64,000 nucleotides of DNA from Myxococcales bacterium (GCA_045863395.1 BTVJ01000010.1:1-64000); one strand, 5' to 3'; shown: positions 1 through 41,283, counted from the stretch's first letter. The notes: generated by a model not told the origin, from the letters alone. Translations and numbers: made by a program.

Positions 1-67
<67 letters not shown>

Positions 68-107
68 TGTTCCCTCCGTCCTTCAACACTGGGTTCAGTG
101 GACCGCT

Positions 108-134
108 CCTGGCTTCGCACGCGCGGAAGCCAGG
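108..134. other. Intergenic hairpin CCTGGCTTC-N9-GAAGCCAGG
   Basis: Perfect 9-bp inverted repeat at 108-116 and 126-134. Confidence 0.5.
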
Positions 135-332
135 GCTCTGGCCGGTACCTTCCTCAAGCGTAGCTCATTAGCCTTTGAAGTAAAATGGAAACATATCCTT
201 TTAGGCTTTCACAGTGACCTACCCCGGAGGCTTCCCTTCCGTGGGGCCGTCCGAGGGGTCCACGTTCGCCGCGCGACCGACCTCGCACCACCACCCCGTC
301 AGGTCCGGCCGGGCTCGCTGGGGCGGGGAGAT

Positions 333-387
333 GGGGTGTCACCAAAGGTGCCAGCGCACAGGGGGGTGATACGAAAGGTGACACCCC
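333..387. promoter_or_regulatory. Tandem pseudo-palindromic transcription-factor sites upstream of the respiratory operon
   Basis: TGTCACCAAAGGTGCCA (337-353) and TGATACGAAAGGTGACA (367-383) are 30 bp apart, each preceded by GGGG. The outer halves form the inverted repeat GGGGTGTCACC / GGTGACACCCC. Confidence 0.5.
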
Positions 388-426
388 GCCAACAGGCGAG
401 CCCGTTGAGTTCTCGTAGGTTACAGG

Positions 427-2283
427 GTGGCACGATCCGTGGATTGTGCTCGGGCCGTGACGAACGACCAAACATCGTGGTGGGACCGCCACGCGGCGGT
501 GTCCATCGACTTCCTCGAGGCGAACTTCCCGTGCCGGGCCGCCTGCCCCGTCGGGACCAACGCCGGCGGCTACGTGTCCCTCATCGCCCAGGGCCGCCAC
601 GAGGAGGCCTACCTGCTCGCGCGGGCGCCCAACCCCTTCGCCTCGGTGTGCGGGCGCGTCTGCGCCCACCCCTGCGAGACGGTGTGCCGCCGCGGGGCGA
701 TCGATGCGCCCATCTCCATCCGGGCGCTCAAGCGCTTCGTGACGGAGCGGTACGGCTGCGAGAGCGCCCGCCGCTACGACGACATCCTGCGCGTCGTCGA
801 GCGGCCACGGCCAGCCGCGGCGCGCCCGCACACCGTCGCGGTCGTCGGGGCCGGGCCCGCCGGGCTCTCCTGCGCCCACGACCTCGCGCTCATGGGGCAC
901 AAGGTGATCGTGTACGACGGCGCCAAGGTCCCGGGCGGCATGCTGCGGCTCGGTGTGCCCGAGTATCGGCTGCCGCGCGAGGTCCTCGACGCCGAGATCG
1001 ACTTCATCCACTTCCTCGGGGTCGAGATTCGCCTTGGCGTCGAGATAGGGCGCGACATCACGTTCTCCGCGCTCCGCGAGACCCACGACGCGGTGTTCCT
1101 CGCGCCGGGCTGCCGCCGCGGCCGAGGCCTGCGCCTGCCCGGCTCCGACCTGCCCGGCGTGATCACCGCCGTCGACTTCCTGCTCAAGGTGAACCTGGGC
1201 GAGCCCATCGAGACCGGCGAGCGCGTCGTCGTCGTCGGCGGCGGCAATGTCGCCTTCGACGTGGCCCGGAGCGCCAACCACTTGATGACGGACGCCGCGA
1301 CCATGGCGGCCCGGGTGCTCAAGAAGGACGTGACGCTGATCTGCCTGGAGTCCGAGGCCGAGATGCCTGCGGACCGGGAGGAGATCGACGAGGGGCGGAG
1401 AGAGGGCGTGCGGCTGCTGACCCGGAGAGGGCCGAAGGCGGTCGTCGCGGGCCCCGATGGGCGCGTCTCGGGGCTCCAGACCCTCGACGTGTCGCGGGTC
1501 TTTGACGACGCAGGCCGCTTCGCTCCCCAGATGATCGACGGGACCGAGAAGGTCATCCCCGCGGACACCGTGATCTTCGCCGTCGGGCAGGTGGCGGACC
1601 TGACGTTCCTCGGAGACGGCCACGGCCTCGACGTCACCCCACAGCAGACGGTCAAGGTCGAGCGGGAGACGCTCGCCACGAACGTCGAGGGCGTCTGGGC
1701 GGGCGGAGACGTCGCCTTCGGCCCGCGCATCGCCATCGAGGCGGTCGGAGACGGCCGCCGGGCCGCCAAGGCCATCGACTCGTGGCTCACCGGGCGCTCC
1801 GACGCCCCTCCCCGCTACGTGCTCGGCGTGCTCGAGACCTACGGCTACGAGCACCCGTTTGCCCGCGGAGACTACGAGAAGACGCCGCGCGCCCACGTGC
1901 CGACCATCGAGCCGACCATCCGCGGGCAGCGCCGCGAGGTGGAGCTCGGCTTCGACGAGGCCCTCGCCCGCGCCGAGGGCGCCCGCTGCCTGCACTGCTG
2001 GGTCAACCCGGTGTTCGACTCCGTGGCCATGGAGGGCAGCGAGTGCATCCAGTGCGGCGGGTGCGCCGACGTCTGCCCCATGGAGGTCATCGCGCTGGTC
2101 TCCGCCGAACGGGTGGGGACGGCCGCAACCCAGGGCGCTGCCATGGCCATCGTGAAGGACGAGACCCGCTGCATCCGCTGTGGCCTGTGCGCCCGGCGGT
2201 GCCCGACCGCCTGCATCACCATGCAGGCCCTCTACCGCGAGCCCGAGATCGACCTGGTCCGGCTCGCAGAGCAGGTGCTGTGA
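427..2283 (+). CDS. NAD(P)H-dependent FAD/Fe-S oxidoreductase (GltD/NfnB/DsrL-like) with C-terminal 2x[4Fe-4S] ferredoxin domain
   Basis: N-terminal PCRAACP...CGRVCAHPCETVCRR cluster motif, GAGPAG FAD motif, GGGNVAFDVAR NAD(P) motif, ARCLHC, CIQCGGCADVCP and CIRCGLCARRCP. The true start may be GTG 457 or 499. Confidence 0.9.
   Translation: MARSVDCARAVTNDQTSWWDRHAAVSIDFLEANFPCRAACPVGTNAGGYVSLIAQGRHEEAYLLARAPNPFASVCGRVCAHPCETVCRRGAIDAPISIRALKRFVTERYGCESARRYDDILRVVERPRPAAARPHTVAVVGAGPAGLSCAHDLALMGHKVIVYDGAKVPGGMLRLGVPEYRLPREVLDAEIDFIHFLGVEIRLGVEIGRDITFSALRETHDAVFLAPGCRRGRGLRLPGSDLPGVITAVDFLLKVNLGEPIETGERVVVVGGGNVAFDVARSANHLMTDAATMAARVLKKDVTLICLESEAEMPADREEIDEGRREGVRLLTRRGPKAVVAGPDGRVSGLQTLDVSRVFDDAGRFAPQMIDGTEKVIPADTVIFAVGQVADLTFLGDGHGLDVTPQQTVKVERETLATNVEGVWAGGDVAFGPRIAIEAVGDGRRAAKAIDSWLTGRSDAPPRYVLGVLETYGYEHPFARGDYEKTPRAHVPTIEPTIRGQRREVELGFDEALARAEGARCLHCWVNPVFDSVAMEGSECIQCGGCADVCPMEVIALVSAERVGTAATQGAAMAIVKDETRCIRCGLCARRCPTACITMQALYREPEIDLVRLAEQVL
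428..443 (+). promoter_or_regulatory. Possible non-canonical sigma54 -24/-12 promoter
   Basis: TGGCACG-ATCC-GTGGA has a perfect -24 box, but GG instead of GC at -12. It lies downstream of enhancer-like sites. Confidence 0.3.
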
Positions 2284-2284
2284 C

Positions 2285-2773
2285 ATGGCGCTCGTCGACG
2301 ATCTGTCCATCCCGACTCCCCCGGAGGAGCTGAACCGGCGCAAGGCGCTGGGGCTGCTCGGCTCCGGGGCGCTGACCATCGCGGCGCTGGGAACGGCGGT
2401 GACCAGCGTGCGGTATCTCTGGCCCCAGGTGCTGTTCGAGGAGAGCAAGCGCTTCCGGCTCGGGCGCCCCGAGGAGATTCCGCTCGGTCAGGTCCTCGTG
2501 CTGCCCCGGCAGAAGATGTACGTCGTCCACCTGGAGGCGGGCTACGCGGCCATCTCCGCCGTGTGTACCCACCTCGGGTGCATGACCGTCCATGAGCCGG
2601 ACGCCCACGGGTACTTCTGCCCGTGCCACGGCAGCCGCTACGACGAAGAGGGCAACGTCACCGACGGCCCCGCCCCGAAGAAGCTCCCCCGCTTCGAGCT
2701 GGCCCTGGAGCGGGGCTTTCTCGTGGTCGACTCGTCCAAGGTCGTGGACCCCGACTTCGTGCTGAAGGTCTGA
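2285..2773 (+). CDS. petC: Rieske [2Fe-2S] subunit of Rieske/cytochrome b complex
   Basis: CTHLGC and CPCHGS boxes, NRRKAL Tat-like motif followed by a TM helix. ATG 2285 directly follows the upstream stop. Confidence 0.92.
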   Translation: MALVDDLSIPTPPEELNRRKALGLLGSGALTIAALGTAVTSVRYLWPQVLFEESKRFRLGRPEEIPLGQVLVLPRQKMYVVHLEAGYAAISAVCTHLGCMTVHEPDAHGYFCPCHGSRYDEEGNVTDGPAPKKLPRFELALERGFLVVDSSKVVDPDFVLKV

Positions 2774-2776
2774 GCC

Positions 2777-3505
2777 ATGTTGAAGCGAGTCATGCGGTCC
2801 ATCTTCCGCCACGGGTTCCCGGACTCCAACCGGAACCGGTCCCTGGCGGTCTTCACCAACTTCTTCCTGCACATCCACCCGGTCAAGGCGCGGGTGCGGG
2901 CGATCGCGTTCAAGCAGACCTACTACCTCGGGGGACTCTCCGCCGCGACCTTCTTCATCCTCGTGGTCACCGGCGTGCTGCTGATGTTCTACTATCACCC
3001 GTCCGTGCCCCGCGCCTACGAGGACATGAAGGACCTGGAGTTCGTGGTCACCGCCGGGGTGTTCCTGCGCAATCTCCACCGCTGGTCCGCCCACGCCATG
3101 GTCGGCCTCGTGCTGCTGCACATGGTGAGAGTGTTCTACGCCGGCGCCTATCGGCCCCCTCGCGAGTTCAACTGGGTCATCGGCGTGATCCTGCTCGTCA
3201 TCACGCTGCTCCTGTCCTTCACCGGATATCTCCTGCCCTGGGACCAGCTCGCCTTCTGGGCGGTCACGGTGGGCTCCAACATGGCGGACTCGGTCCCGGT
3301 GATTGGTCCCGACATCAAGTTCCTGATGCTCGGCGGGAGCGGAGTCAACGAGAACGCGCTGCTGCGCTTCTACGTGCTCCACTGCGTGGTGCTGCCGGGC
3401 GTGCTGATGCTCGGGATCGCCGTCCACATCTGGCGGGTGCGGAAGGACGGGGGAATCTATCTGCCTCCACGCAAGAAGGGCCACGGAGGGACTGATGAAG
3501 CCTGA
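2777..3505 (+). CDS. petB: Cytochrome b6-type N-terminal cytochrome b subunit
   Basis: [10 protein letters not shown]...[32 protein letters not shown]-x13-H (14 residues between the two His). Confidence 0.93.
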
Positions 3506-4148
3506 TCCGGCCGTCCGCCACATCGTCGTCATCCAGGGGGAGGCACGCCCCCCCGTGGACGTGGACGACGAGCCGCAGCTCATGACGTTTCCGCACCTGG
3601 TCGTGCGGGAGCTGCTGGCGCTGCTCGCCATCTCCATCGTGCTCGTCGTCGCGGCGCTCCTGTTCGACGCCCCCCTGGAGGAGCTGGCCAACCCGACGGT
3701 CGCCCCGAACCCGGCCAAGGCGCCGTGGTACTTCCTCGGGCTCCAGGAGCTGCTGCACTACTACCCGCCGCTGATCTCCGGCGTCATCCTGCCCGGGATC
3801 GTCGTCGCGGCGCTCGTGATCATCCCGTACTTCGAGGTCAATCTGCGGCGGCGCCCGCTCTGGGAGTCCGCCGACCGGAGCCGCACCCTGGCCGGCATCG
3901 GCGTGGGCGTGGCGATACTCAGCGCCATCCTTCTGTTCACGGGGGCGCACCCAGTCTGGCCCGTTCTCGTGCCCCTGTGGGTGACGGTCGGCCTCGCGCT
4001 GCTCCCGCCCTTTGGCAAGCGCTCGTTGGCCTTCTGGATCTTCTCGTGGTTCCTCGCGTCCACGGTCACCCTGACCGTCATAGGCGTCTTCTTCCGCGGT
4101 CCCGGCTGGAGCTTCGTGCTCCCGTGGCGGGACGGTCTCTTCTACTAG
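3495..4148 (+). CDS. petD: Cytochrome b6f subunit IV-like (C-terminal cytochrome b)
   Basis: [18 protein letters not shown]...[17 protein letters not shown] (PEWY-equivalent), several TM helices. Confidence 0.87.
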
Positions 4149-4160
4149 GAGCGCGGCACG

Positions 4161-5716
4161 ATGCGACCCGATCTGGACATCCGCCGCTTCCTGCTCGCCT
4201 TCGCGGCGCTGAGCGTGCTGCTGACGGGGCTCCTCGCCGTTGCGCCGGCCAAGGACCACTTCTCCGAGTGGAGGGCGACCCAGGAGCGCTACAACTCGCT
4301 GGCCTCTGCGCCAATCCCCGTGGAGCTGCGCCAGGTCTGGAAGCCGGACCGGGGCACCGTGGACCGCTGCACGAGCTGCCACCTGGGCATGGGACCGGCG
4401 GAGCCACTCTCGGCCGAGAAGGTCTTTGCCGCCCACCCGCCCATGCCGCACGACCCGAGCGACATCGGCTGCACGGTGTGTCACTCGGGCCAGGGGCGCG
4501 CGACGACGGCGGCTGGGGCCCACGGCAAGGTGGCCCACTGGACCGAGCCGCTCCTGCCCATGGAGCACATCGAGGCAGGCTGCGGCTCGTGTCACGGCGA
4601 CGCCCGCCCTGCGTCGTCGCAGACCATCGCCCGCGGGGAGGCGCTGTTCGCTCAAGCCGACTGCTACGCGTGCCACAAGGTGGACGGCAAGGGGCGCGGC
4701 ACGGGGCCCGACCTGTCCGGTGTGGGCGCCCGCGCCTACGTCCACGACTGGAACGCGCGGCACGCAGCGCTGGCCGCCACCGGCGCAAACGGCCCCTGGA
4801 AGGACTCCTTCCGCCCGGTCCCGCTCGACCAGGTCGCCGCCATCGACGCGTGGCTCGACACGCGCATCAAGGCGCCGCGCCTGATGGCGGCGCAGACCCT
4901 CGTGCACGACCTCGGGTGCCTGGGGTGTCACAAGGTGCGCGGCACGGGAGGCGACGACGGGCCCGAGCTGTCGGAGTCGTGGCGCACCCGGACGCCCGAG
5001 TGGCTCACCGAGCACTTCATCTCGCCCCAGGCCCTCGTGCCCGGCAGCCTGATGCCTGATTTTGGCCTCTCGCGGGACCAGGCGAGCCTGCTGACCACAT
5101 GGGTGCTCTCCCTCCGGGGACCCGGCCGCACACGCAACGAGCGCACCTTCGCGCAGGACGGCGCCACCCTCTACGGGGCCTTCTGCGCCGCCTGTCACGG
5201 CCCGTCTGGCGAGGGGCGTCGCTACGGACAGACTCCCTCGACCTTCCCGGCCATCGGCAGCCCGGACTTCCTCGCCGTCGCCAGCGACGACATGCTGCGC
5301 AAGACGCTGCTCGACGGCCGCCCGGGGCGCCGCATGCCCGCCTGGGGCACGAAGGAGGGCGGCTTCCGCCCGGAGGAGGTCGAGGCCCTTGTCCAGCACC
5401 TGCGCTCTCTGGCGCCCGCGCCGGACCCGAAGGACCTGATTGAGGTCCCATCCCAGGGAGACGCCACCCGCGGCGCCCCCCTCTACGCGGCCCACTGCGC
5501 CTCGTGCCACGGGGCGGCCGGCGAGGGCAAGGACGGCCCGGCGCTTCGCAACGCGGCCTTCCTGGCCGCGGCGACGGACACGTACATCCGGCTGACCGTC
5601 CAGCGCGGGCGCGGCGGCACGGCCATGCGGCCCTTCGGCCGCGGCACGCCCGGCAACGCGAGCCTCGCACCGACTCAGATAGACGACATCATCGCCTTCA
5701 TCCGCAAGGGGACACC

Positions 5717-5720
<4 letters not shown>
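4161..5720 (+). CDS. Membrane-anchored multiheme cytochrome c (7 CxxCH)
   Basis: CTSCH, CTVCH, CGSCH, CYACH, CLGCH, CAACH, CASCH and an N-terminal hydrophobic helix. Confidence 0.93.
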
Positions 5721-9154
<3,434 letters not shown>

Positions 9155-9157
9155 CCC

Positions 9158-10284
<1,127 letters not shown>

Positions 10285-10288
<4 letters not shown>

Positions 10289-11085
10289 GAAACACCGCCA
10301 TCATCGCGCTGTGCGCCGCCCTCATCGGCTGCGGCGAGACGACCACCAAGGCACCCGAGGCCGCCAAGGGGCTGGTCATCGGCAAGGCTGCGACGCTGCC
10401 GGCGACCCCCGGCGACCCCGCGTGGCAGGGCGTCGCCCCGGCGACGGTGCCGCTCCTGCCCCAGGACGTCACGGAGCCGCGGCTCACCGACGGGGTCAAG
10501 GAGGTCGAGGTGCGCGCCGTGGGAGACGGCACCTCCGTCGCGTGGCGTCTGTCGTGGGCGGACCCCACCCAGGACGACGGCCTCGGGGTGACCCGCTTCG
10601 CCGACGGCTGCGCAGTGCAGCTCCCGAGCACAGGAGGCCCGGACGTCCCCGACTCCATGATGGGCCAGCCCGGGCGCCCCGTGCGGATCACGCTCTGGAA
10701 GGCCATCTGGCAGGCGGTCGCAGGCGGCAAGGAGCAGACCATCGCGCGCCTCTACCCGAATGCGCTCATCGACCATTACCCCCACGGGGACCATGTGGCG
10801 GCGGTGGTCTCGGGGAACTCCATGGCGACCCTCCCGGGCGGGCGCGTCACCCAGGACCTCGTCGCCGAGGGCTTTGGGAGCCTCTCTCCCGCACCGGAGC
10901 AGACATCCAAGGGGGCGGGCGCCTGGGCGGACGGCAAGTGGTCGGTGGTCGTCGTGACCGCCGCGCCGCCGTCTCCCCGCTCCTACGCCGCGTTCGCCGT
11001 GTGGGATGGGGCGGGCCGCCAGACCGGGGCGCGCAAGATGCGCTCCGACTGGGTGGGGACCACGGCCGAGGGGGGCGCGCCATGA
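10285..11085 (+). CDS. nxrC: Heme b gamma subunit (EbdC/NxrC-like, DOMON-type), lipoprotein
   Basis: ATGA overlap, lipobox [42 protein letters not shown]...GARK. Confidence 0.82.
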
Positions 11086-11777
11086 GCGGCTGCCCCGACT
11101 GCGACCACGCCGAGAGTCCGACACCGGTCACCGCGACACCTGCTTCGTCCACCGAAGTGCTGATCCATGCAGCCGCCCTGGACCGCCTGCTGATGCTGCT
11201 CCTGCTCCCGCCGGACCCACACCGCCCGGCGGCCCTCCGGGAGCTCGCCCCCGCGCTGGAGCCGGAGCTGCGAGACTTCGCCATCGCGGCAGCGGACCAG
11301 GGCGCCGGCGCCCTCCAGGCGGAGTATCACGTGCTCCTCGGCTTCTCGGGCCTCGTTCCCACGTGCGAGAGCGATCTGGGCGACGGCGTGATGCGCAAGG
11401 CGTCCAGCATCCCCGACGTGGCGGGCTTCTATCGGGCCTTCTCGTGGGCCCCCGCGGAGCTGCGGGACAGCCCGGACCACATCGCCTCCGAGCTGGGCTT
11501 CGCCTCGTGGCTGGCGCTGAAGCAGGCGGCGGCCCAGGACGCGGGGAACGCGGACGCCACGGCGGTCACCGCCGAGGCACGCGACGCCTTCGAGCGGGAG
11601 CACCTCGGCCCCTTCGGCGCCCGCCTCGCCGAGCGGCTCCTGGCGGTGGCGCCGGACGGGTCGCTGTTCGCGCACGTCGCGGCGCTGCTCGCCCTGCGGT
11701 GTCAGCTCCCGGACATGACTGGAGAGGGGCGGGACGGTCGGGGTGAGGGCGGGAGCTCCACGGGGGCAACGAGCTGA
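11082..11777 (+). CDS. TorD/DmsD-family molybdoenzyme chaperone
   Basis: DVAGFYRAF and PDHIASELGF motifs, ATGA overlap, last gene of the operon. Confidence 0.85.
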   Translation: MSGCPDCDHAESPTPVTATPASSTEVLIHAAALDRLLMLLLLPPDPHRPAALRELAPALEPELRDFAIAAADQGAGALQAEYHVLLGFSGLVPTCESDLGDGVMRKASSIPDVAGFYRAFSWAPAELRDSPDHIASELGFASWLALKQAAAQDAGNADATAVTAEARDAFEREHLGPFGARLAERLLAVAPDGSLFAHVAALLALRCQLPDMTGEGRDGRGEGGSSTGATS

Positions 11778-11801
11778 CCGCCCTGCCCCCCGGTTCCACG
11801 G

Positions 11802-13553
11802 CTACTTCTTCGCGATGCGCGCCGCGTAAGGCCCCGTGATGGACTCCTCGCCCGCGGTGAGCTTCAGCTCGCCGCAGACCCAGGTGTCGTCCAGGTGGTC
11901 GATGGTCGCGGTGCCCGCCTTCACACCGTCCAGCGAGATGGACATGAACATCATGCCGCCGGTCTTGATGCCGAGGGTCGGCATGACGTAGCGCTCGGTC
12001 TTGGTGTCGAGGGAGTACTCGCCGGCGTCGACCGGCTGCGGCTCCTTCTTCTCGCTCTGCAGGTCCACCTTGGCGAAGCGCAGGCCCACCTTGAGCTGAC
12101 GGCCACGCGGCGCGTCGAAGAGCTTCGCCGGGTCCAGCAGGTAGTTGGCGATGTCCACCGTGATCGTCTTGCCCTCCCACTGCGACTGGGCGTAGGCCGA
12201 GATCACCGTCAGCGACTTGTCCTCCCACTTCTTCAGGTTCAGCGCCAGGTCGCCCTTCTTGCACGCGGCGGGCATGCCCTCCCAGTCCATGGGGGTGCTC
12301 GCCTGCTGCACCTCGTTGAGGCCGTTGCCGGGCGCCGACAGCGTGGCCTCGTTGAGCCCGGCCACCGTGACGGGCGTCGCGCGGTCCATGAGGGTGCCGT
12401 CACCGAGCTGGCCGCGCTGGTTGTAGCCCCAGCACTTCACGGTGCCATCCTTCAGCGCCGCGCAGGAGGTGTTGGCGCCGGTGGCGATGGAGACGGCGTC
12501 CGTGATGCCCTGGACCGCGACCGGCGCGTTGGACATGCTGCCGACCTGGCCGTTGCCGAGCTGACCGCGGTCATTGCTGCCCCAGCACTTGACCGTCCCG
12601 CCCGCCAGCAGCGCGCAGAGGTGGCCGCGGCCGGCGATGGCCGTCGCCCCGGCGAGGTCGCCCTTCTTCGCGGGCGCGGCGTAGTCCGTCCAGCACGTGA
12701 CGCTGGTGTCGCCGTGGGAGACGCAGGTCTCGCCACCCTGGGTGGCCGCCCAGATCGCCTTGGCGTCGGTCACGCCCTCCACCAGCGTCGCGTCCTGCTT
12801 CTTGTTGACGTAGCCCCAGCACTTGACCGTGCCGTCGCCCAGCAAGGCGCAGGCGTGGTTCTGGCCCGCGGCCACGCCCACGGCGCCCGCCACGTTCGGG
12901 ATCTGCGTGATCGGCTTGTCCGACGAGTTGCTCGGATCGCTCTCGCCGAAGGAGTTGAAGGCCGCGCTGCCCCAGCCCTTGACGCTGCCGTCGGGCCACA
13001 CGGCGTAGATCGTGCCGCCGCCGGTCGCCAGCGCCTTGATGCCCTTCAGATCGAGCACGGCGCGAGGGGCGCCGTCCGTCGCGTTGTCCGGGAACAGGCG
13101 CGTGTGACCCCAGCACCAGACCGACTCGTCCTTGCGTCCCACGCACGCGATGTCGCTGGCGCTGCCGGGGTCGCCGCCCATGACGATCCACGTGGCGTCC
13201 GTCACACCGGGGACCTGCACGGGCGTCGCGGCGTCGTCGTTGGACTTGGGGAGGCCCAGCTCGCCGAAGTCGTTGCGACCCCAGCACCGGACCGTGCCGT
13301 CATCCATCAACGCACAGGCAGCGCCGTTGCCCGCGGCGACCTGCACGGCCTTGGGGCCAGCCTTCGCAGCGTCCTTTGCCGGCTCGTCCTTCTTGGCCTC
13401 GTCCTTCGGCTCGTCCTTCTTGGCCTCGTCCTTCTTGGCCTCGTCCTTCTTGGCCTCGTCCTTCGCGGGGGGAGCGGCCGGGGCCTCGTCCTTCTTGCAG
13501 CCCGGCGCCGCAAGGGCCGCCACGACGGCCAGTGTCATCATCGCTCTGCGCAT
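11802..13553 (-). CDS. RCC1-repeat beta-propeller lipoprotein
   Basis: Lipobox AAPGC, repeated CALxxDGTVxCWGxNxxGQLG units, and an unrelated C-terminal domain. Confidence 0.88.
   Translation of the reverse strand: MRRAMMTLAVVAALAAPGCKKDEAPAAPPAKDEAKKDEAKKDEAKKDEPKDEAKKDEPAKDAAKAGPKAVQVAAGNGAACALMDDGTVRCWGRNDFGELGLPKSNDDAATPVQVPGVTDATWIVMGGDPGSASDIACVGRKDESVWCWGHTRLFPDNATDGAPRAVLDLKGIKALATGGGTIYAVWPDGSVKGWGSAAFNSFGESDPSNSSDKPITQIPNVAGAVGVAAGQNHACALLGDGTVKCWGYVNKKQDATLVEGVTDAKAIWAATQGGETCVSHGDTSVTCWTDYAAPAKKGDLAGATAIAGRGHLCALLAGGTVKCWGSNDRGQLGNGQVGSMSNAPVAVQGITDAVSIATGANTSCAALKDGTVKCWGYNQRGQLGDGTLMDRATPVTVAGLNEATLSAPGNGLNEVQQASTPMDWEGMPAACKKGDLALNLKKWEDKSLTVISAYAQSQWEGKTITVDIANYLLDPAKLFDAPRGRQLKVGLRFAKVDLQSEKKEPQPVDAGEYSLDTKTERYVMPTLGIKTGGMMFMSISLDGVKAGTATIDHLDDTWVCGELKLTAGEESITGPYAARIAKK
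13381..13497 (-). repeat. 15-bp coding tandem repeat (KKDEA pentapeptide linker)
   Basis: Repeated ggcctcgtccttctt units encoding KDEAKKDEAKKDEAKKDEPKDEAKKDEP. Confidence 0.85.
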
Positions 13554-13771: not shown

Positions 13772-17848
<4,077 letters not shown>

Positions 17849-17977: not shown

Positions 17978-18418
17978 ATGGACGCCATCGCGACCCACAC
18001 GCTGACCGACACGGAGCGCGTCGCCCTCGCGGGAGCTGCCCGGCAGCTCCTGGCACGGCACGGCTGGGTGCGTGTGGTCTACCTCTATGGGTCTGCGGCG
18101 CGCGGAGGAGGAGCCCACGACATCGACATCGGCATTGTGGCCGACCCGATCCCGACCCGTTGGGACACCGAGATCCTGCTGGCGGCGGAGCTCCACGAGG
18201 CGACGGGTATCGGCGCGGTGCCGTTCGACGTGCGCATCGTGAACCACGCCGACCCCGTGTTCCTGGGGCGTATGCTGACCGACGCCGTCCTTCTGGCCGA
18301 GGCCACCCGCGCGGACCGGGTCCGCTTCGAGGTGCGCGCGATGTCGCTGTGGCTCGACTTCAAGCCGGTCTGGGAGAGGATCCGGGCCCAGGTCCTCCAA
18401 GGGTGGTCCCATGGGTGA
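17978..18418 (+). CDS. mntA: Minimal nucleotidyltransferase antitoxin (MNT)
   Basis: YLYGSAARG...DIDIG and DVRIVN motifs, 146 aa, overlaps the HEPN gene. Confidence 0.85.
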   Translation: MDAIATHTLTDTERVALAGAARQLLARHGWVRVVYLYGSAARGGGAHDIDIGIVADPIPTRWDTEILLAAELHEATGIGAVPFDVRIVNHADPVFLGRMLTDAVLLAEATRADRVRFEVRAMSLWLDFKPVWERIRAQVLQGWSHG

Positions 18419-18824
18419 GTCGCACCTCGCGCTGCTCCGTGAGCTCCTCGATTTGCTGGATCGGTACGCTGCGACCGTGACCGTGGTCGCCATCGGCTCG
18501 GACCGGGAGACCTGGCTCAAGGTGCGCGGCGCGCTGGAGGTGTCAGGCCAGTGCGCCATCGACCTGGCGCTGCACATCGTCGCCACACGCCGACTCGGGA
18601 TGCCCCAGACCTACCGCGACGCCTTCAAGCTCCTCGCTGGGGCAGGCGTCATCGACGCACGGCTCGCAGGCGAGCTCGAGGCCTGGGCCGGGCTGCGGAA
18701 CGTGCTCGCCCACGTCTACACGTCCCTGGACCTGGAGCGGCTCCACAGCGCCCTCGGGGAGACGGCCCCCCTTCGAGCCTTCGCCGTGATCGCCGCGCGG
18801 GAGCTGAACGACGCCGGGGCGTGA
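18411..18824 (+). CDS. hepT: HEPN/DUF86 ribonuclease toxin
   Basis: RNVLAHVY (Rx4HxY) and PQTYRDAF motifs. Confidence 0.87.
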   Translation: MGESHLALLRELLDLLDRYAATVTVVAIGSDRETWLKVRGALEVSGQCAIDLALHIVATRRLGMPQTYRDAFKLLAGAGVIDARLAGELEAWAGLRNVLAHVYTSLDLERLHSALGETAPLRAFAVIAARELNDAGA

Positions 18825-24618: not shown

Positions 24619-24696
24619 GCGGAGACCGGACGCCGAGGTCGCAGGGAGTCTCGGCCGCCTTCGCGGGGAGCGCCACCAGAGGCGGAGGATCCCGAG

Positions 24697-25707
24697 ATGA
24701 GCAACGAGCCAGACGCAGTGAGGCCGCGGGTCGATCTCTACCGGCAGATCACGGGCCGAATCATCGAGGCCCTGGAGCGGGGCGTGGCCCCGTGGGTCTG
24801 TCCGTGGCAGCGGAGCCGAGAGAAGGGACCGCAGCGCAACGGTGTGTCCGGTCGCCAGTACCAGGGCATCAACACGCTCCTGACCATGATCGCCGGGTTC
24901 GCGTCCACGCGCTGGTACACGGCGCGCCAGGTGGGCAAGCTCGGGGGCCGGCTCCTCGAAGGCGAGCGCGCCACGACGCTCGTCTGGTTCGAGATGAGGT
25001 ACATCGAGACGAGCGAGGGGCCCGACGGGGTCGGGACGGTGGGTCGTGTGGTGCCCGTGCTCCGAGAGCACGAGGTCTTCAACGCGGAGCAGATCGCGTG
25101 GCCGGAGGGCTCGAAGCACGCTCTGCCCGTGGCGCCGGAGCGCCGAGGCCAGTGGGAGGACGAGCTGCCCCGGCAGCTCGTCGAGCGGTCGGGGGCGCGG
25201 GTGGAGCGGCGGGGAACCCGGGCGTACTACTCGCCATCGGAGGACCGCATCGTCCTCCCCGTGGAGGAGCGGTTCGAGGACCCCACGTCGTACTACGGGA
25301 CCCTCCTGCACGAGCTGGCCCACTGGACGGGCCACCGAGACCGCCTCGACCGCGACTTCTCCAAGCGGTTCGGCGACGAGCGCTACGCCTTCGAGGAGCT
25401 GGTCGCGGAGCTCACCGCGGCCTTCCTCTGCGCCCACGTGGGCCTCGACGGCACGCTCCAGCACGCCGGGTACATCGACTCCTGGCTGAACGTGCTCCGA
25501 CGAGACAAGCGGGCGATCTTCACGGCGTCGGCGCAGGCCCAGAAGGCCGCGGAGCTCCTGCTGTGGAAGGGAGGCCTGGGCCCCGAGCCGCGGCGGCCCA
25601 AGGGCCCGTGGACACCACCAGATGCGGAGGCAGGCGAGGCTGAGCCCTCCCAGCGCCGGCGGCGACACCCGAGGGAGACCGGGTCTCAGACCTTCGTGGA
25701 CTCGTAG
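24697..25707 (+). CDS. ardC: ArdC-family ssDNA-binding antirestriction protein with zincin-like domain
   Basis: LYRQITGRII...GVAPWVCPW, YQGIN, AYYSPSEDRIVLP, LLHELAHWTGH...RLDR, YAFEELVAEL. Confidence 0.9.
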   Translation: MSNEPDAVRPRVDLYRQITGRIIEALERGVAPWVCPWQRSREKGPQRNGVSGRQYQGINTLLTMIAGFASTRWYTARQVGKLGGRLLEGERATTLVWFEMRYIETSEGPDGVGTVGRVVPVLREHEVFNAEQIAWPEGSKHALPVAPERRGQWEDELPRQLVERSGARVERRGTRAYYSPSEDRIVLPVEERFEDPTSYYGTLLHELAHWTGHRDRLDRDFSKRFGDERYAFEELVAELTAAFLCAHVGLDGTLQHAGYIDSWLNVLRRDKRAIFTASAQAQKAAELLLWKGGLGPEPRRPKGPWTPPDAEAGEAEPSQRRRRHPRETGSQTFVDS

Positions 25708-26374: not shown

Positions 26375-26920
26375 TCAGCTCCCGCAGGGTCCGTCGGGGA
26401 AGATCTCCAGCTCCAGCTCCTCCTCGTTGAAGGAGGTGACGAGCGAGGTCATGCCGCGTTCGTCGGTGCGCCCCTCCCAGCGCTTTCCGGACGCGCTCGT
26501 GATCACGTAGTGGAGGTGGCACCACGGCTCGCCGTCCGGGTCCTTCACGGTGAAGCCGCCCTCGAAGCGCGGGACGAACTGCACGAGGCCGCCAGCGACG
26601 AAGTCGCCGATGGTCACGTTGGGGCTCCCCTGGATCAGCTTGCCGCTCCCCCCGCAGTGCTTCTGGGCGTCGCCCACGCGGTGGGCCTTGCGCCCGTTGA
26701 TGTAGACACCGGGCGCCCCCGCGGTGGCGATCCACGTGTTGGGCCCGCAGCAGGCCGCGTGTACGCCCACGTCGTCCACGCGCAGGGCGGGGCTCCCGTT
26801 GATCACGACGTCCGGCGACCCTGACGTGCCGGGGCCGATGGCGCCGTGAGGGCAGGACGGGCACCCGTGGCCATCGGCCGGGACCTGCCCCTTGTCTCCT
26901 ACCCTACCCGCCTGCGGCAT
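26375..26920 (-). CDS. PAAR-domain protein with C-terminal transthyretin-like extension
   Basis: AGRVGD, HGCPSCPH, GSPDVVINGSPALRVDD, INGRKAHRVGD, GSPNVTIG, followed by VKDPDGEP...Y.I...G...EGRTDERGMT. Confidence 0.88.
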   Translation of the reverse strand: MPQAGRVGDKGQVPADGHGCPSCPHGAIGPGTSGSPDVVINGSPALRVDDVGVHAACCGPNTWIATAGAPGVYINGRKAHRVGDAQKHCGGSGKLIQGSPNVTIGDFVAGGLVQFVPRFEGGFTVKDPDGEPWCHLHYVITSASGKRWEGRTDERGMTSLVTSFNEEELELEIFPDGPCGS

Positions 26921-27086
26921 GCTGGCCTCCAGTTCTGCGGCACTCGCGCTCCGTGCAACGGCGCACATTCACGCCTATGGGGCACCGCGACGTCAAGCCA
27001 CTTGTTGTCACCATCGCTCTTGGCTCCCGGGCCGAAGGAGAGCGCCACAGCGAAATTGCACGCGGATCCGTCAGGTGCGAAGGGCG

Positions 27087-27482: not shown

Positions 27483-28884
27483 GGCTGCCTCCGGTGGTGG
27501 GGTGGGGGAAGGTCACGGTCATGGTGGTGCCCTCGCCGAGCCTGCTCTTTACATCGATCTGCGCGTCGTGGAGCCGCACCACCTCTGCCACGATGGCGAG
27601 GCCCAGGCCCGAGCCGTTGGGGCGGTGGCGGACGGCCTGGTCCGTGCGGAAGTGGTCCTCCCAGATGCGCGGGATGCACGCCGCCGGGATGCCGATCCCC
27701 TGGTCGGCGATGGCGCAGTGGACGCCGGCAGCGTCGACACGCAGGGACACGGAGACTCGCCCCCCCTCGAGGGAGTAGTCCACGGCGTTGGAGAGGAGGT
27801 TCGAGAGCATCGCCCGCAGCTCCGGCTCCGACGCCGTGATCGGCGCCTCGGTGGCGGGCGGATCCCAGGCGACACCCACCCCGCGAGGCTGACCGCGGGC
27901 CGCGGCCTCGGCGACCTCCTCGCAGAGGATGGGGGTGAGATTGAGGCGCCGCAGCTCCAACTGACTCGGCTCCAGGGTCTTCAGGTTGGCGAGGTGGATG
28001 ATCTGCCCGATGCGCTGCATCAGCAGGTCGCACCGCTCTCCGATGCGCAGGACCACGGTACGGGTCGCGGGCGGCAGCTCGCCCGTGTATCCGTCGCGCA
28101 TCGTGTAGACGTAGCTCTTGATGGCGGCGAGGGGGGCCTTCAGCTCGTGGGTCGCGCGCAGGGTCGCGCGCACCTTCTGCTCACCGACCCTCAGCAGGCG
28201 GTCGTGGTCGGCCTGCAGGCGCGCCTCCCGGGCGCGGAGGCCGTTGGCGAGCTGGGCGACCAGGTACCAGCAGGTCAGGAACACCGCGAAGAGCCCCAGC
28301 ACGTATACGGTCGTCAGCATCCGGTGCTCTGCCAGGCGCGCCGCCAGGTCGCTCCCGAGGATGCTCTGAGGCGGCAGCACGCCGAAGCCCGTGAGCACCA
28401 CCGGCGTCGCGGCGAGCGCGGCGCCCACGAGCGCCATGGTCAGGCTCTGCCGCGGCGTGCAGTGGAGCGTGAGCAGTGAGATGTGGGCGAGGAACAGCGC
28501 CGAGATGGGGGTCTCCACCAGACCCAGGGTGTAGGTGAGGGCGGAGAGCGCGACGAAGTCGGTGGTGGACTGGGCGAGCAGGAAGCCGCGAGGGCTCACC
28601 CACGGGACCTGGCCCGCCTGGATAGGCCCCGCGGACAGCGAGTAGACGACGTTCGTCAGGGCGAGGAAGGCGGTGACCCCCGCCAGGAGGATCGGAGAGA
28701 TGGAGACGGGCAGGAGCTCGGTGGCTGCAGCGAGGGTGCCCAGGGCGCCCAGGGCCACGAAGACCCAGCGGACGACCACGCTCCACCAGATGCGGTCCAC
28801 CAGCTCGCGGCGGCGAAGGCGCACCTCGTCGGAGTTGGGCGTCCACCACCGGAAGACGCCGCGCTCGTGGCGGGGGAGGCTCAC
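27457..28884 (-). CDS. Membrane sensor histidine kinase
   Basis: 5-6 TM helices, H-box THELKAPL, NLLSNAVDY, DQGIGI, GSGLGL. GTG start overlaps the hypB stop. Confidence 0.9.
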   Translation of the reverse strand: MSLPRHERGVFRWWTPNSDEVRLRRRELVDRIWWSVVVRWVFVALGALGTLAAATELLPVSISPILLAGVTAFLALTNVVYSLSAGPIQAGQVPWVSPRGFLLAQSTTDFVALSALTYTLGLVETPISALFLAHISLLTLHCTPRQSLTMALVGAALAATPVVLTGFGVLPPQSILGSDLAARLAEHRMLTTVYVLGLFAVFLTCWYLVAQLANGLRAREARLQADHDRLLRVGEQKVRATLRATHELKAPLAAIKSYVYTMRDGYTGELPPATRTVVLRIGERCDLLMQRIGQIIHLANLKTLEPSQLELRRLNLTPILCEEVAEAAARGQPRGVGVAWDPPATEAPITASEPELRAMLSNLLSNAVDYSLEGGRVSVSLRVDAAGVHCAIADQGIGIPAACIPRIWEDHFRTDQAVRHRPNGSGLGLAIVAEVVRLHDAQIDVKSRLGEGTTMTVTFPHPTTGGSHGAHPDDR

Positions 28885-29687
28885 CGGACGAGCTCCCGGA
28901 GCAGGGCGAGCCATGGAGGGAGGCCCTCGCCGGTCCAGGCGCTCAGCTCCAGGATCCGCGCGTCCGGGCGCACGCGGCGGATGTTGGCGATGCAGGCGTC
29001 ACGGTCCCAGCGCAGGTGGGGGATGAGATCCACCTTGGTGATCACGACAACCGGGGCGCGGTGGAAGAGGGCCGGGTACTTGAGGGGCTTGTCCTCCCCC
29101 TCGGTCACGGACAGGAGCGCCACGCGAGCCGTCTGGCCCAGGTCGAAGGCGGCGGGGCAGACCAGGTTGCCCACGTTCTCCACCAGGAGGAGGTCGAGGT
29201 GAGCGAGCGCCGGCAAGTGGCGCTCTACGTCCGTGGCGTCCAGGTGGCAGGCGCCGCCCGTCTCCACTTGGAGGACCCGGGCGCCGCGGCCCGCCAGGCG
29301 GCGCGCGTCGTTGTCCGTGCGCACGTCGCCCGCCAGTACGCCGATGCGCAGCTCGCCGGCGAGGGCGTCCAGGGTGGCCTCCAGGAGCGTGGTCTTGCCG
29401 CTGCCCGGAGACGAGATCAGGTCGATCATGCGGCAGCCCGCGGCGGCGAGGGCGGCGCGGTTCCGCGCGGCGACCGCGTCGTTGTGGGCGAGGACCGCCT
29501 CCCCCAGGGCCACGCGGCGGGCAGTCTCGGCCAGGCCGGGGACGTGGAGCGCTGGTGCATGGTGGCGGTGGTGGTGATCGTGGTGGTGACCGTGTTCGTG
29601 CTCATGGTCGTGCGCGTGGTGGTGGTCACCCACCAGAGCGCGGGTGGAGCGCTCGGCCGCCTGTCCGCACCCGCAGGTATCGCACAT
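28881..29687 (-). CDS. hypB: Hydrogenase nickel-incorporation GTPase
   Basis: MCDTCGC, His-rich tract, SSPGSGKTT, GGACHLDA, ENVGNLVCPA, EGEDKPLKYP. Confidence 0.95.
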   Translation of the reverse strand: MCDTCGCGQAAERSTRALVGDHHHAHDHEHEHGHHHDHHHRHHAPALHVPGLAETARRVALGEAVLAHNDAVAARNRAALAAAGCRMIDLISSPGSGKTTLLEATLDALAGELRIGVLAGDVRTDNDARRLAGRGARVLQVETGGACHLDATDVERHLPALAHLDLLLVENVGNLVCPAAFDLGQTARVALLSVTEGEDKPLKYPALFHRAPVVVITKVDLIPHLRWDRDACIANIRRVRPDARILELSAWTGEGLPPWLALLRELVR

Positions 29688-30028
29688 CAGCACACCTCCA
29701 TGGTGGAGATCACCAGGTCCCGGCCCCCCACCACGTCCACGTCGACGCCCCCGCACTGCGCGCACGAGAGCAACGCCTCGCGGCGCTCCGTTCGCTCACC
29801 GCAGGCCCGGCAGTCCAGCACGAGCGGGGCGTCGACGATGTCGAGGCGCGCCCCGTCGAGCGGCGTGCCGCGCGTCACCAGGGGGAAGCACAGCTCCAGC
29901 GACTCCCGGCGCGCGCAGCTCAACACGCCGAGCAGCACGCGCACCGACACCAGGCGCGTGGCGCCATGCTCGGAGAGCACCTCCCGGGCCTTGTCGGCGA
30001 TGGCCACCACCAGGGACAGCTCGTGCAT
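29687..30028 (-). CDS. hypA: Hydrogenase nickel chaperone
   Basis: MHELS and two CxxC motifs. Confidence 0.93.
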   Translation of the reverse strand: MHELSLVVAIADKAREVLSEHGATRLVSVRVLLGVLSCARRESLELCFPLVTRGTPLDGARLDIVDAPLVLDCRACGERTERREALLSCAQCGGVDVDVVGGRDLVISTMEVC

Positions 30029-39113: not shown

Positions 39114-39257
39114 CCCTCGACCACCTCCCCTCCCCCGCTTCGAGTATCCACCAACGGGGGCTCCTGGCAATCCACCGCCGGCCGTCCGCGTCAGGCGACG
39201 ACCGGGGCGTAACCCTGGCTGGCCTGCGTGCGCAGGCTCCGCTATGCTCCCCGGTCC

Positions 39258-41048: not shown

Positions 41049-41283
41049 TAACGACGCCCGCGCATGCAGGCTGGACGGCAGACCGCCCTTGCGCGAGACG
41101 ACCGTCGTGCGGTATCCAATGTCCGTTCCCGGCGCAATTGAAGCCCGTCCACCGCACTGATCGCGGGTGCCCGAGCGATCGCGCCCAGCCCTCTGCCCGT
41201 GAGGGCGCCGGGGCGCTTGGAGCCGAGCCATGCACACTCCCCTCCCCCCCCGCGCACCGACCGAGCGAGCCGCCGCGAGCCAG

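Follow-up and report, generated by a model that had tools for sequence, protein, structure and literature searches.

The stretch of DNA considered here, referred to as the window, comprises the first 64 kb of contig C10 (GCA_045863395.1 BTVJ01000010.1:1-64000) from the genome of an uncultured Myxococcales bacterium of sludge (8.77 Mb, 186 contigs, 97% complete). It begins with a cassette of nine open reading frames (ORFs), g1 to g9, all on the + strand between 427 and 11777 and, as read from the sequence, either overlapping or separated by gaps of 12 nt at most. Pfam and NCBIfam matches give the order flavoprotein, Rieske protein, cytochrome b6, subunit IV-like protein, heptahaem cytochrome c, molybdoenzyme alpha, beta and gamma subunits, and chaperone (Table 1). 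An earlier note on this DNA, made by a model from the sequence alone, had described nine co-directional, tightly packed genes in this order, and the ORFs, the family matches and the junctions, three of them ATGA, bear it out; its 7-heme cytochrome is likewise found, with seven CXXCH motifs, in g5, and its subunit IV stands as the C-terminal half of a cytochrome b, with five hydrophobic helices and not three. The "probable myxobacterial relative" of that note is supported by the nearest named relatives of RpoB, which is 72-74% identical to the Haliangium, Myxococcales and Polyangia proteins (five of the nine organism-named rows among the 120 listed), and this supports a placement of the host among the Myxococcota. 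The nine genes are tentatively read here as a conserved operon for a menaquinol:nitrate oxidoreductase supercomplex in which g1 would reduce NAD(P)+ by bifurcation, a reading that is possible and no firmer than that.

Within the cassette, the left-hand junctions consist of a 1-nt gap (g1/g2), a 3-nt gap (g2/g3), an 11-nt overlap (g3/g4) and a 12-nt gap (g4/g5), and the right-hand ones of ATGA overlaps at g5/g6, g7/g8 and g8/g9 and a 3-nt gap at g6/g7; the ATGA junctions, read from the sequence, set the starts of g8 and g9 at 10285 and 11082. Third-position GC is 0.88-0.94 in the frames of g1 to g7, the seven listed by the codon-position script, whose filter the frames of g8 and g9 did not pass. 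The start of g1 is uncertain among the GTG codons at 427, 439, 457 and 499, and, as the window opens at the end of the contig, nothing 5' of the operon is visible.

Table 1. The nine genes of the cassette, their predicted products and the evidence for each call.
Gene	Predicted product	Coordinates	Strand	Basis
g1	NAD(P)H/FAD/Fe-S flavoprotein, GltD/NfnB-like, cytoplasmic	427..2283	+	Pfam, NCBIfam and PDB matches
g2	Rieske [2Fe-2S] protein, exported by the twin-arginine (Tat) route, one membrane helix	2285..2773	+	Pfam Rieske, RR motif, boxes
g3	Cytochrome b6-type, four-helix cytochrome b	2777..3505	+	Pfam Cytochrome_B, PDB
g4	Subunit IV-like C-terminal half of cytochrome b	3495..4148	+	Pfam Cytochrom_B_C, NCBIfam ExtQ-like
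g5	Heptahaem cytochrome c, periplasmic, membrane-anchored	4161..5720	+	CXXCH motifs, Pfam
g6	Molybdenum bis-pyranopterin guanosine dinucleotide (Mo-bisPGD) catalytic alpha subunit, Tat-exported, of the nitrite oxidoreductase/periplasmic nitrate reductase (NXR/pNAR) lineage	5717..9154	+	PDB 7b04_B
g7	Fe-S beta subunit	9158..10288	+	NCBIfam DMSO_red_II_bet, Pfam Fer4_11
g8	Soluble haem-b gamma subunit, EbdC/NxrC type	10285..11085	+	Pfam EB_dh, NCBIfam DMSO_red_II_gam
g9	NarJ/TorD-type assembly chaperone	11082..11777	+	Pfam Nitrate_red_del, NCBIfam DMSO_red_II_cha

In a search of all solved structures, g6 matches NxrA of Kuenenia (7b04_B) over residues 4-1142 with 845 bits, against 195 bits for PcrA, 127 for NarG and 109 for EbdA, which agrees with the NXR-type Mo enzyme claimed earlier. 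The Kuenenia subunit, KsNXR-A, combines 3Cys/1Asp ligation of FS0 with a substrate-coordinating Asn and an Asp ligand to Mo, according to Chicano et al. (2021, PMC8387239); the CAPNDTHNC stretch of g6 aligns with C67/N70/D71/C75 of that protein, and WHTDLPPG with D275, and a twin-arginine signal, an FS0 motif C-x2-N-D-x3-C and the Mo-ligand Asp are all present in g6. Across the 21 cassette copies compared (the window and its relatives at L-numbered loci), the Mo-ligand Asp motif occurs in all and CAPNDTHNC in 20, the remaining one, L029, having CGPNDTHNC with the same ligand residues. The NxrA-type residues and the scores do not place alpha in a non-nitrogen clade, a possibility that the earlier note had raised, and support its assignment to the nitrate/nitrite (NXR/pNAR) lineage and not to Ebd/Ser/Clr/Pcr. 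A different substrate, such as chlorate/perchlorate, selenate, arsenite or an organic compound, is highly improbable: changes of substrate have been frequent among type II DMSO-reductase enzymes, and the cytochrome b of the cassette is nearest in NCBIfam to ExtP of a selenite/tellurite reduction operon (265 bits, cut-off 290), but the distance between the NxrA score and those of PcrA and EbdA, the presence in 21/21 copies of the substrate Asn that is Ile in EbdA (PMC8387239), and the co-occurrence of NrfA and NsrR-like Rrf2 regulators point to nitrogen oxides.

The gamma subunit g8 matches EB_dh (2.7e-18) and DMSO_red_II_gam, and has a lipoprotein-like signal peptide (a signal with Cys in most copies); its M126 and K251 are common to at least 18 of the 19 aligned rows, which fits the Met/Lys haem ligation described for KsNXR-C (PMC8387239). 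The beta subunit g7 matches DMSO_red_II_bet with 262 bits and Fer4_11 at 6.5e-29, and the chaperone g9 matches Nitrate_red_del at 3.6e-10 as well as DMSO_red_II_cha.

The alpha family is large, with 2890 proteins at E <=1e-20 among the 8000 candidates scored, and its best 120 relatives of g6, from many phyla, are 64-75% identical; a one-genome-per-species scan gave 169 alpha relatives, the best 80 of which make up the set of L-numbered loci compared here. The source names of these proteins read 'nitrate reductase alpha subunit' and, in some rows, 'nitrate reductase / nitrite oxidoreductase, alpha subunit'. Two alpha trees were built, one with FastTree from 87 rows, leaving out nine alphas shorter than 1000 aa (L004, L011, L032, L035, L052, L058, L059, L062 and L067), and the other a quick IQ-TREE analysis of 51 chosen rows under LG+G4; in both, the canonical NXR group is represented by proxies, that is, 50%-identity cluster representatives scored against 7b04_B, and named Nitrospira, Nitrospina, Nitrotoga, SerA, ClrA and DdhA sequences lie outside the data sets. 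Scores to 7b04_B descend from P0124 (1590 bits), P0129 (1133) and P0122 (1059) to Methanoperedens L063 (876) and the window (845). The canonical-type proxies (P0124, the NC10 protein L018 and P0129) form their own clade with a support of 100 in both trees, and the window alpha branches outside the canonical group, as judged by these proxies, within a separate clade, again with a support of 100 in both trees, that also holds Methanoperedens L063 and two Caldarchaeum genomes. Kitzinger et al. (PMC6050957) describe a 'sister clade' of periplasmic NXRs with the Nitrotoga NXR, putative nitrate reductases (NARs) of nitrate reducers, the characterized periplasmic NAR of Hydrogenobacter, and Caldiarchaeum, and, because Caldarchaeum is shared, the clade of the window is probably this one.

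The module upstream of the molybdoenzyme carries the features of a Rieske/cytochrome b complex. The Rieske protein g2 (Pfam Rieske, 5.4e-11; boxes CTHLGC...CPCHGSRY) keeps its RR motif and both boxes in 21/21 copies, and of all solved Rieske structures it scores highest against 9rk4 (Kuenenia Kuste4569, 76 bits), with 49.5 bits to 9rk3 (Kustd1480). The window has a Ser/Tyr signature (CPCHGSRY) and most relatives Ser/Phe; under the rule that assigns 300-350 mV to Ser/Tyr and 200-230 mV to Ser/Phe Rieske proteins (PMC3509893), g2 has the signature of a high-potential protein. The cytochrome b g3 (Cytochrome_B, 5.1e-43; 150 bits to cytochrome b6 in the PDB) shows b6-type spacing, five His residues invariant in 18/18 rows (His32, 101, 115, 202 and 217, namely the four canonical haem ligands and, close to the N-terminus, His32) and a conserved WRxRKDGG stretch after helix D. 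None of the 21 copies has a Cys at what we take to be the site of the haem cN Cys in b6, where the window reads TYYLGG and its relatives T(L/M/W)GLG. A few split cytochromes b lacking this Cys are listed in PMC3509893. In g4 (Cytochrom_B_C, 4.2e-4; ExtQ-like, 59.9 bits) the Qo motif is APWY, and the stretch around it is invariant in 21/21 copies. The cytochrome b is one fused ORF in 19/21 copies, and separate g3 and g4 genes are confined to the window and L001, its closest relative; a frameshift artefact was rejected as the cause, since the break in L001 falls at the same position and the overlap there is different. The cytochrome c g5, anchored by a single N-terminal hydrophobic helix, consists of four close haems and three class-I c domains (Cytochrom_C, 3.4e-38, and Cytochrome_CBB3) and has seven CXXCH motifs in 20/21 copies and nine in L022. 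Elsewhere in the genome, a second module made up of a Rieske protein, an ExtP-like cytochrome b6, an ExtQ-like subunit IV and a 722-aa multihaem cytochrome c lies on the 7.5-kb contig C156 (L090:1304-5114, -), which carries no GltD-like gene and no molybdoenzyme, and a third cytochrome b, of 635 aa, lies with a Rieske gene on C38.

The flavoprotein g1 is composed of an N-terminal two-cluster domain, an NAD(P)H-FAD part and a C-terminal 2x[4Fe-4S] ferredoxin domain, as indicated by Pyr_redox_2 (2.7e-29), Fer4_20 (4.6e-17) and a Fer4 dicluster at residues 537-598, and matches PRK12771 in NCBIfam with 455 bits. Among solved structures it matches NfnABC (9bov/9bp5, 342 bits), NfnA (9n5u, 304), NfnB (4ylf, 241) and GltD (2vdc, 196), and FwdF (5t5i) matches its C-terminal cluster domain; 9bp5 and 5t5i are the structural homologues named by Hauser et al. 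(2025, PMC12954380) for the Kuenenia NAD(P) reductase subunit Kuste4570. No hydrophobic segment was found in g1, and two CxxCxxCxxxCP motifs are present in 19/21 copies, with one in L024 and none in L006, where the ORF is cut short. Searches of the ESM Atlas with g1 returned generic FAD-oxidoreductase clusters only, mostly from Acidobacteriota. A complex prediction with residues 440-618 of g1, g3 and g4 (18-row alignments) scored 0.16, compared with a mark of 0.32, and counts neither as support nor as counter-evidence.

Searches with the nine proteins (tblastn) show that g1 to at least g7 occur in the same order and strand in 20 of the 80 loci, and all nine were detected in 14 of these 20 (L001, L002, L003, L005, L010, L013, L017, L022, L024, L026, L027, L029, L070 and L073); g9 was not detected in four (L009, L014, L016 and L021), and in two (L006 and L039) the contig ends after g7. 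In seven further loci, cut upstream, g5 or more stands directly before alpha (L004, L007, L008, L011, L015, L019 and L059), and two loci, L025 and L052, are permuted, with g1-g4 directly 5' of alpha and a weak g5-like multihaem match 3' of the chaperone. The L025 alpha falls in a neighbouring clade and that of L052 is too short for the trees; the link of the Rieske/cytochrome b-flavoprotein module to the enzyme may thus predate the nine-gene order or have two origins. Among the remaining 51 loci, 36 with 5 kb or more of upstream sequence show no g1-g4 match on the alpha strand, and 15 have too little flank to judge; L032 has Rieske/cytochrome b-like matches on the strand opposite alpha. All 25 module-bearing alphas of the FastTree analysis fall in one clade (SH-like support 99), recovered by IQ-TREE with 15/15 rows (SH-like approximate likelihood ratio test, 95), and no module-free alpha lies inside it. 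By record title, the clade comprises Myxococcota (Anaeromyxobacter and 'Deltaproteobacteria' metagenome-assembled genomes, MAGs), Planctomycetota, one MAG labelled Nitrospiraceae, and acidobacterial members (Blastocatellia, Pyrinomonadaceae and Chloracidobacterium-labelled MAGs). The g1 and g5 trees repeat the alpha groupings (window/L001, L002/L003(/L006), L024/L029 and the acidobacterial sets), which points to a shared history of the left five and right four genes; the single unit of nine genes claimed earlier is thus upheld by the order kept in 20/80 loci, the one alpha clade and the matching trees, and a lack of joint conservation of the two halves, which would have spoken against it, was looked for and not found. 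Within the class of the window, a true alpha orthologue is present in 4/41 genomes, and this patchiness points to lateral spread of the cassette.

This conservation bears on the proposal that the cassette only juxtaposes two separate respiratory modules, g1-g5 serving general quinol oxidation and the NXR-type enzyme being fed from elsewhere, which is extremely unlikely. The 36 loci with alpha, beta and gamma and no g1-g4 upstream imply that the enzyme can work alone, and the C156 module is a second set of Rieske, cytochrome b6, subunit IV and multihaem genes in the same genome; against this stand the ATGA overlap of g5 and g6, the adjacency in 25/25 members of one alpha clade across at least three phyla with matching trees, the retention of g1-g4 beside alpha in permuted order in L025 and L052, and the fact that the right-hand four genes encode neither a membrane anchor nor a quinol dehydrogenase of their own. 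The flanks of 12 relatives (52 ORFs) contain an Rrf2-family regulator immediately 5' of the cassette in L005 and L009, a sigma-54 activator, directly adjoining, and MobB upstream in L001, a divergent NrfA upstream and a ScdA-like gene with a hemerythrin domain downstream in L073, molybdenum cofactor genes next to L010 and L026, and a hemerythrin-domain gene next to L014; no oxidase or carbon-fixation genes were seen in these 12 flanks.

The gene content of the host genome bears on the direction of the reaction. The genome encodes NapA (902 bits, cut-off 904) with a NapB-like neighbour, NrfH and NrfA, qNOR, complex I (NuoD, 488 bits), cbb3 and aa3 oxidases with a gene resembling alternative complex III, a Sec-type formate dehydrogenase and Phs/Ttr-like enzymes; NirS was not found, and NirK remained below the cut-off. 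NrfA, on contig C21 (L084:8839-10437, -), adjoins NrfH. Its first haem motif is CXXCH and not CXXCK, and it has one in-frame TAG; the NrfA of G050, another cassette genome, also has one TAG inside the match. Among carbon-fixation markers, the only RuBisCO found is an MtnW-like RuBisCO-like protein (RLP; 320 bits to the enolase model), CdhC of carbon monoxide dehydrogenase/acetyl-CoA synthase was not found in this 97%-complete genome, and the citrate-binding domain of ATP citrate lyase (ACL; PF16114) gave no match, its control being silent too; the genome is thus without any marker of those searched, a set that did not include 3-hydroxypropionate-type cycles. Across the 20 cassette genomes, NrfA gives a strong match (>370 bits) in 15, compared with 12 of 37 class relatives without alpha, a contrast that is indicative only, as the genomes are mutually related and all MAGs. 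True RuBisCO (436 bits) is present in one of the 20 (G045), with one weak RLP-like match besides; NapA exceeds the cut-off in three, with NapA-like pieces in two more, NarG is present in two, full-length NirS in one and NirK in none. Thirteen of the 20 have no Nap or Nar match (E <=1e-50), so that the cassette enzyme would be the only candidate respiratory nitrate reductase found there, and nine of these 13 have NrfA. Genome content thus favours nitrate reduction over nitrification.

The earlier note had left open a lineage of hidden nitrifiers, and this part of its reading is not favoured, whereas the nine-gene unit and the NXR/pNAR lineage stand: in the alpha trees the window lies outside the canonical NXR proxies and groups with the Methanoperedens nitrate reductase, and the check for carbon fixation yielded only the MtnW-like protein and no CdhC. 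A related proposal is that the enzyme acts at times as a nitrite oxidoreductase, with electrons from nitrite passing over gamma and the heptahaem protein to an oxidase and part of them being driven back to quinone or NAD(P)+, as in a lithoheterotrophic or hidden nitrite oxidation. Its appeal lies in an alpha subunit related over its full length to a bidirectional NXR, whose active-site and FS0 residues it shares, in the report of the Nitrotoga NXR within the sister clade (PMC6050957), in the suggestion that the APWY clade of cytochromes b runs in reverse (PMC4122944), in the cbb3 and aa3 oxidases, and in a high-potential Rieske signature that would suit a high-potential donor. It is nevertheless distinctly unlikely, since no carbon-fixation marker was found here (ACL control silent) and RuBisCO occurs in only 1/20 cassette genomes, NrfA is enriched instead, the nearest enzyme of known physiology, L063, is a nitrate reductase that works in nitrate-dependent methane oxidation (PMC4683180), the 12 flanks examined show no oxidase gene within or next to the cassette, and, with menaquinone, the confurcation of nitrite and NAD(P)H electrons would run uphill (on potentials that are in part general background). 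Improbable as well is a cassette that works as a two-way nitrite/nitrate machine, oxidizing nitrite under oxygen while the module drives electrons up to NAD(P)H; if it were so, Myxococcota, Acidobacteriota and Planctomycetota of sludge and soil taken for heterotrophs would be unrecognized nitrite oxidizers, and nxr-based gene surveys would miscount nitrifiers.

The operon appears to be expressed in sludge. Positions 2000-11777 were found in 20 public runs from seven studies, of which seven runs (X2, X3, X5, X7, X8, X19 and X20) are RNA libraries from sludge or aquatic samples; contigs with 0-6 differences each, from the libraries X2 and X3 of one study and from X5 of another, tile 469-13439, and those at 469-3732 and 3722-5934 bridge g1 into g4 and g4 over g5 into g6, respectively. 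X19, from a third study, covers parts of the operon with more differences. Depth in X2 is 30-55 over the operon, compared with 4.9-10.9 in contigs at 15.5-20 kb and 3.5-5.9 in the 14-18 kb bins, and in X5 it is 7-19, compared with 0-1 in the 14-18 kb bins, although contig depth is a coarse measure, RNA libraries can hold DNA, and contigs show neither strand nor a single transcript. The DNA runs X4 and X10 are flat at 7-10 over both regions. The difference between the two kinds of run speaks for genuine transcripts, and DNA carry-over was on this ground rejected as the only origin of the RNA-library contigs. The RNA contig at 9667-13439 also covers the convergent gene 3' of the operon, at a depth similar to that over the operon. 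The contigs of the three RNA runs all begin at 469 without a loose end, and DNA contigs reach 73 (the repeat at the contig start being skipped); the 5' end may thus lie near 469, which would weakly favour the GTG at 499 as the start of g1.

In the supercomplex proposed here, menaquinol would be oxidized at the Qo site of the Rieske/cytochrome b part (g2-g4), and the high-potential electron would pass from the Rieske cluster over the anchored heptahaem protein (g5), the gamma haem b (g8) and the beta Fe-S clusters (g7) to Mo (g6), where nitrite would be formed from nitrate on the periplasmic side. The protons released at Qo would conserve energy, the low-potential electron would travel over the b haems to the cytoplasmic g1 for NAD(P)+ reduction, and the nitrite formed would pass on to NrfA in this organism and in most cassette holders. 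The nitrate/nitrite couple lies near +430 mV. Potentials of about -70 mV for menaquinone and -320 mV for NAD(P) are given in PMC12954380, and with these values, some of them general background, bifurcation from menaquinol would be downhill. The logic of quinol, Rieske/cytochrome b and nitrate reductase has been proposed for haloarchaea (PMC3509893) and for Methanoperedens (PMC4683180). As to the role of g1, bifurcation is favoured because the module shares unusual features with the anammox complexes, the genome has complex I and the potentials allow it; by analogy with those complexes, reduction of NAD(P)+ by g1 is somewhat probable, and its use as an entry point for NAD(P)H a lesser possibility.

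The latter direction corresponds to the picture of the earlier note, a nitrate-reducing supercomplex in which electrons from NAD(P)H would enter at g1 and pass along its Fe-S chain and the b haems to the Qi side in a Q-cycle. With the full NAD(P)H/FAD/4-cluster equipment of a GltD/NfnB-type protein, g1 would suit this role, GltD normally passing NADPH electrons inward, and the cytochrome b keeps its four canonical haem ligands and WRxRKDGG; all the evidence for the nitrate direction applies equally. This arrangement is rather unlikely as a whole, because complex I would do the same job with proton pumping, because Hauser et al. (PMC12954380) judge such a route wasteful for the anammox complexes, and because it needs no high-potential Rieske protein, the Rieske proteins linked to Nar in haloarchaea being of low potential (PMC3509893).

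A number of observations weigh against a menaquinol:nitrate oxidoreductase with bifurcation. The use of menaquinone by the phyla that hold the cassette is general background, the cbb3 and aa3 oxidases could take electrons derived from nitrite, RuBisCO is present in G045, and the presence of NapA with a NapB-like gene means that a second periplasmic nitrate reductase in this genome needs a reason. The in-frame TAG in NrfA, the limits of the RNA evidence given above and the fact that the named cassette holders seen are all MAGs count in the same sense. The missing haem cN Cys sets g3 apart from the Kuenenia models, and the route to g1 may therefore differ. From the literature, NXR enzymes are reversible (PMC8387239), the nitrite-oxidizing Nitrotoga enzyme is placed in the sister clade with Caldiarchaeum (PMC6050957), and APWY-type cytochromes b are proposed to run in reverse by Kao and Hunte (PMC4122944), whose hypothesis rests on one Geobacter gene cluster, no APWY complex having been characterized according to the same account.

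As for the surroundings of the operon, a (CT)n run of about 27 units occupies 1-54, at the very start of the contig, and is probably the reason for the assembly break. Two similar 19-nt elements, GGTGTCACCAAAGGTGCCA at 334-352 and GGTGATACGAAAGGTGACA at 366-384, sit about 85-135 nt 5' of the RNA-contig start at 469. A promoter scan of 1-12500 gave no sigma-70 promoter, terminator-like sites in the same interval number 3 against 2.7 expected, with none 3' of g9, and the sigma-54 pattern with at most two mismatches has 56 matches against 58 expected, and thus no statistical support; TGGCACG at 428-434 resembles a sigma-54 -24 box, within a pattern match spanning 428-442 from this search, which is not above chance. 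No Rfam match at the gathering threshold was found in the whole window. The convergent gene 3' of the operon encodes an RCC1-repeat lipoprotein (11802-13553, -), and beyond it a 1358-aa DUF4215 protein (13772-17848, -) has about 8-fold lower depth in X2 and near zero in X5. Genes for a HepT-like ribonuclease (toxin-type), an ArdC-N/zincin metallopeptidase and a PAAR-motif protein (18279-18824, 24619-25707 and 26375-26968) hint at mobile or conflict-system DNA. Genes at 35196-39473 (-) and 28881-29795 (-) include those for a NiFe-hydrogenase large subunit, with NAD-binding/Fe-S (DHODB-type) and 4Fe-4S dicluster neighbours, and, nearby, for a CobW/HypB-type GTPase, and the hydrogenase genes look like a soluble NAD(P)-linked set. 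Two giant ORFs, at 41203-47421 (+; 2072 aa) and 48098-64000 (+; >5300 aa, running off the window), both contain Ig-like, F5/8 type C, fibronectin III and laminin-G domains and probably encode surface or adhesion proteins.

Among the systems described so far, the left half of the cassette comes closest to the Rieske/cytochrome b complexes with an NAD(P) oxidoreductase subunit in Kuenenia, Kuste4569-4574 and Kustd1480-1485, both of which, according to Hauser et al. (2025, PMC12954380), contain a b6-like cytochrome, a five-helix subunit IV, a hexa- or octahaem cytochrome c and a cytoplasmic NAD(P) oxidoreductase. The Rieske potentials given for them are +303 and +335 mV, an extra haem b is predicted at the dimer interface, quinol bifurcation to NAD(P)+ is the favoured mechanism, and, as its authors point out, a high-potential partner reaction has yet to be proposed for Kustd1480-1485 (PMC12954380). 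The b6-type cytochrome b, the five-helix subunit IV, the multihaem protein in place of cytochrome f or c1, the NAD(P)/FAD/4-cluster subunit of about 600 aa with the same templates and a Rieske signature suggestive of high potential are shared, and, to judge from these features, the module of the window is of the anammox type except for the haem cN Cys and the haem count. It differs in lacking this Cys, in having seven haems and not six or eight, in its cytochrome b being fused in 19/21 copies, and in its high-potential partner, a genetically linked NXR/pNAR enzyme in the absence of any HAO-like one; its hosts are bacteria other than anammox organisms and, as far as searched, lack a carbon-fixation marker. 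His32 of g3 may be compared, by description and not by alignment, with His43 of Kuste4571 and His62 of Kustd1481, the proposed ligands of the interface haem (PMC12954380).

The right half resembles the Kuenenia NXR-ABC (7B04) in its Tat signal, FS0 ligands, substrate Asn, Mo-Asp, soluble haem-b gamma with Met/Lys and Fe-S beta subunit. The window alpha reaches 845 bits to 7b04_B, compared with 1590 for a canonical-type representative; no NXR-T or tubule context was seen at the window operon, and the 15-gene Kuenenia nxr cluster, as described in PMC8387239, is without the Rieske/cytochrome b complex that the operon includes.

The coupling of the two halves has its nearest precedent in the haloarchaeal cluster narB-narC-...-narG-narH (Baymann et al. 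2012, PMC3509893), where a Rieske/cytochrome b pair immediately precedes the genes of a NarGH-type enzyme that faces outward and has a b-type cytochrome in the periplasm, and where electrons are proposed to flow from quinol over Rieske/cytochrome b and haem b to NarH and NarG. According to this source, however, the haloarchaeal Rieske protein is of the low-potential Gly/Phe type, the cytochrome b is of the Actinobacteria/Thermus type, and neither an NAD(P) flavoprotein nor a heptahaem cytochrome c is part of the cluster, whereas the window has Ser/Tyr, g1 and g5; pNar-like alphas of Halorussus are 37% identical and form the outgroup of the alpha trees. Candidatus Methanoperedens nitroreducens (Arshad et al. 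2015, PMC4683180) has an alpha that is 56% identical and falls in the same 100-supported clade, with a Tat signal and an Orf7-type haem-b subunit, and the published model likewise leads from menaquinol over Rieske/cytochrome b and a multihaem cytochrome c to a pseudoperiplasmic nitrate reductase; its Rieske/cytochrome b genes are elsewhere in the genome, the nar cluster contains NapH- and HCO-II-like genes, and no NAD(P) flavoprotein is reported. In Thermogutta terrifontis R1, three cytochrome b/c1 genes adjoin those for NarG (of a 'deep lineage'), NarH, the gamma subunit and TorD within THTE_1506-1512 (Elcheninov et al. 2017, PMC5673643), a likeness by published description; the organism is a cultured nitrate-to-ammonium respirer with NrfHA (PMC5673643), and homologues of NXR subunits have been reported in it (PMC12758564). 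Caldithrix abyssi was considered as the same system and rejected, its Rieske/cytochrome b genes being part of a Nap cluster and the enzyme not NXR-type (PMC5317091).

Each half of the cassette was therefore already known, as was the coupling of Rieske/cytochrome b to an outward-facing Nar-type enzyme in haloarchaea, and what is new with respect to the searchable literature is the joining of an anammox-type NAD(P)-linked Rieske/cytochrome b module, a heptahaem cytochrome c and an NXR/pNAR enzyme in one conserved operon; no description of the nine-gene arrangement outside anammox bacteria was found in a literature search that did not extend to subscription papers and supplements. Gene surveys are affected as well, in that alphas of this family occur in genomes resembling those of nitrate-to-ammonium reducers, and routine marker lists appear to overlook the family: L011, from a MAG labelled Ca. 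Sulfopaludibacter SbA3, carries g5 and alpha, and the SbA acidobacterial MAGs were originally described as being without nar, nap, nrf or nxr genes (10.1101/197269). NAD(P)-linked Rieske/cytochrome b complexes have so far been discussed for anammox bacteria, which have no genetic tools, whereas here a complex of this type is genetically tied to a defined high-potential enzyme in many non-anammox bacteria; the cassette would thus supply a defined partner reaction for the bifurcation hypothesis of anammox research and, in hosts that may prove easier to work with, make the old idea that quinol oxidation bifurcates electrons to NAD(P)H testable.

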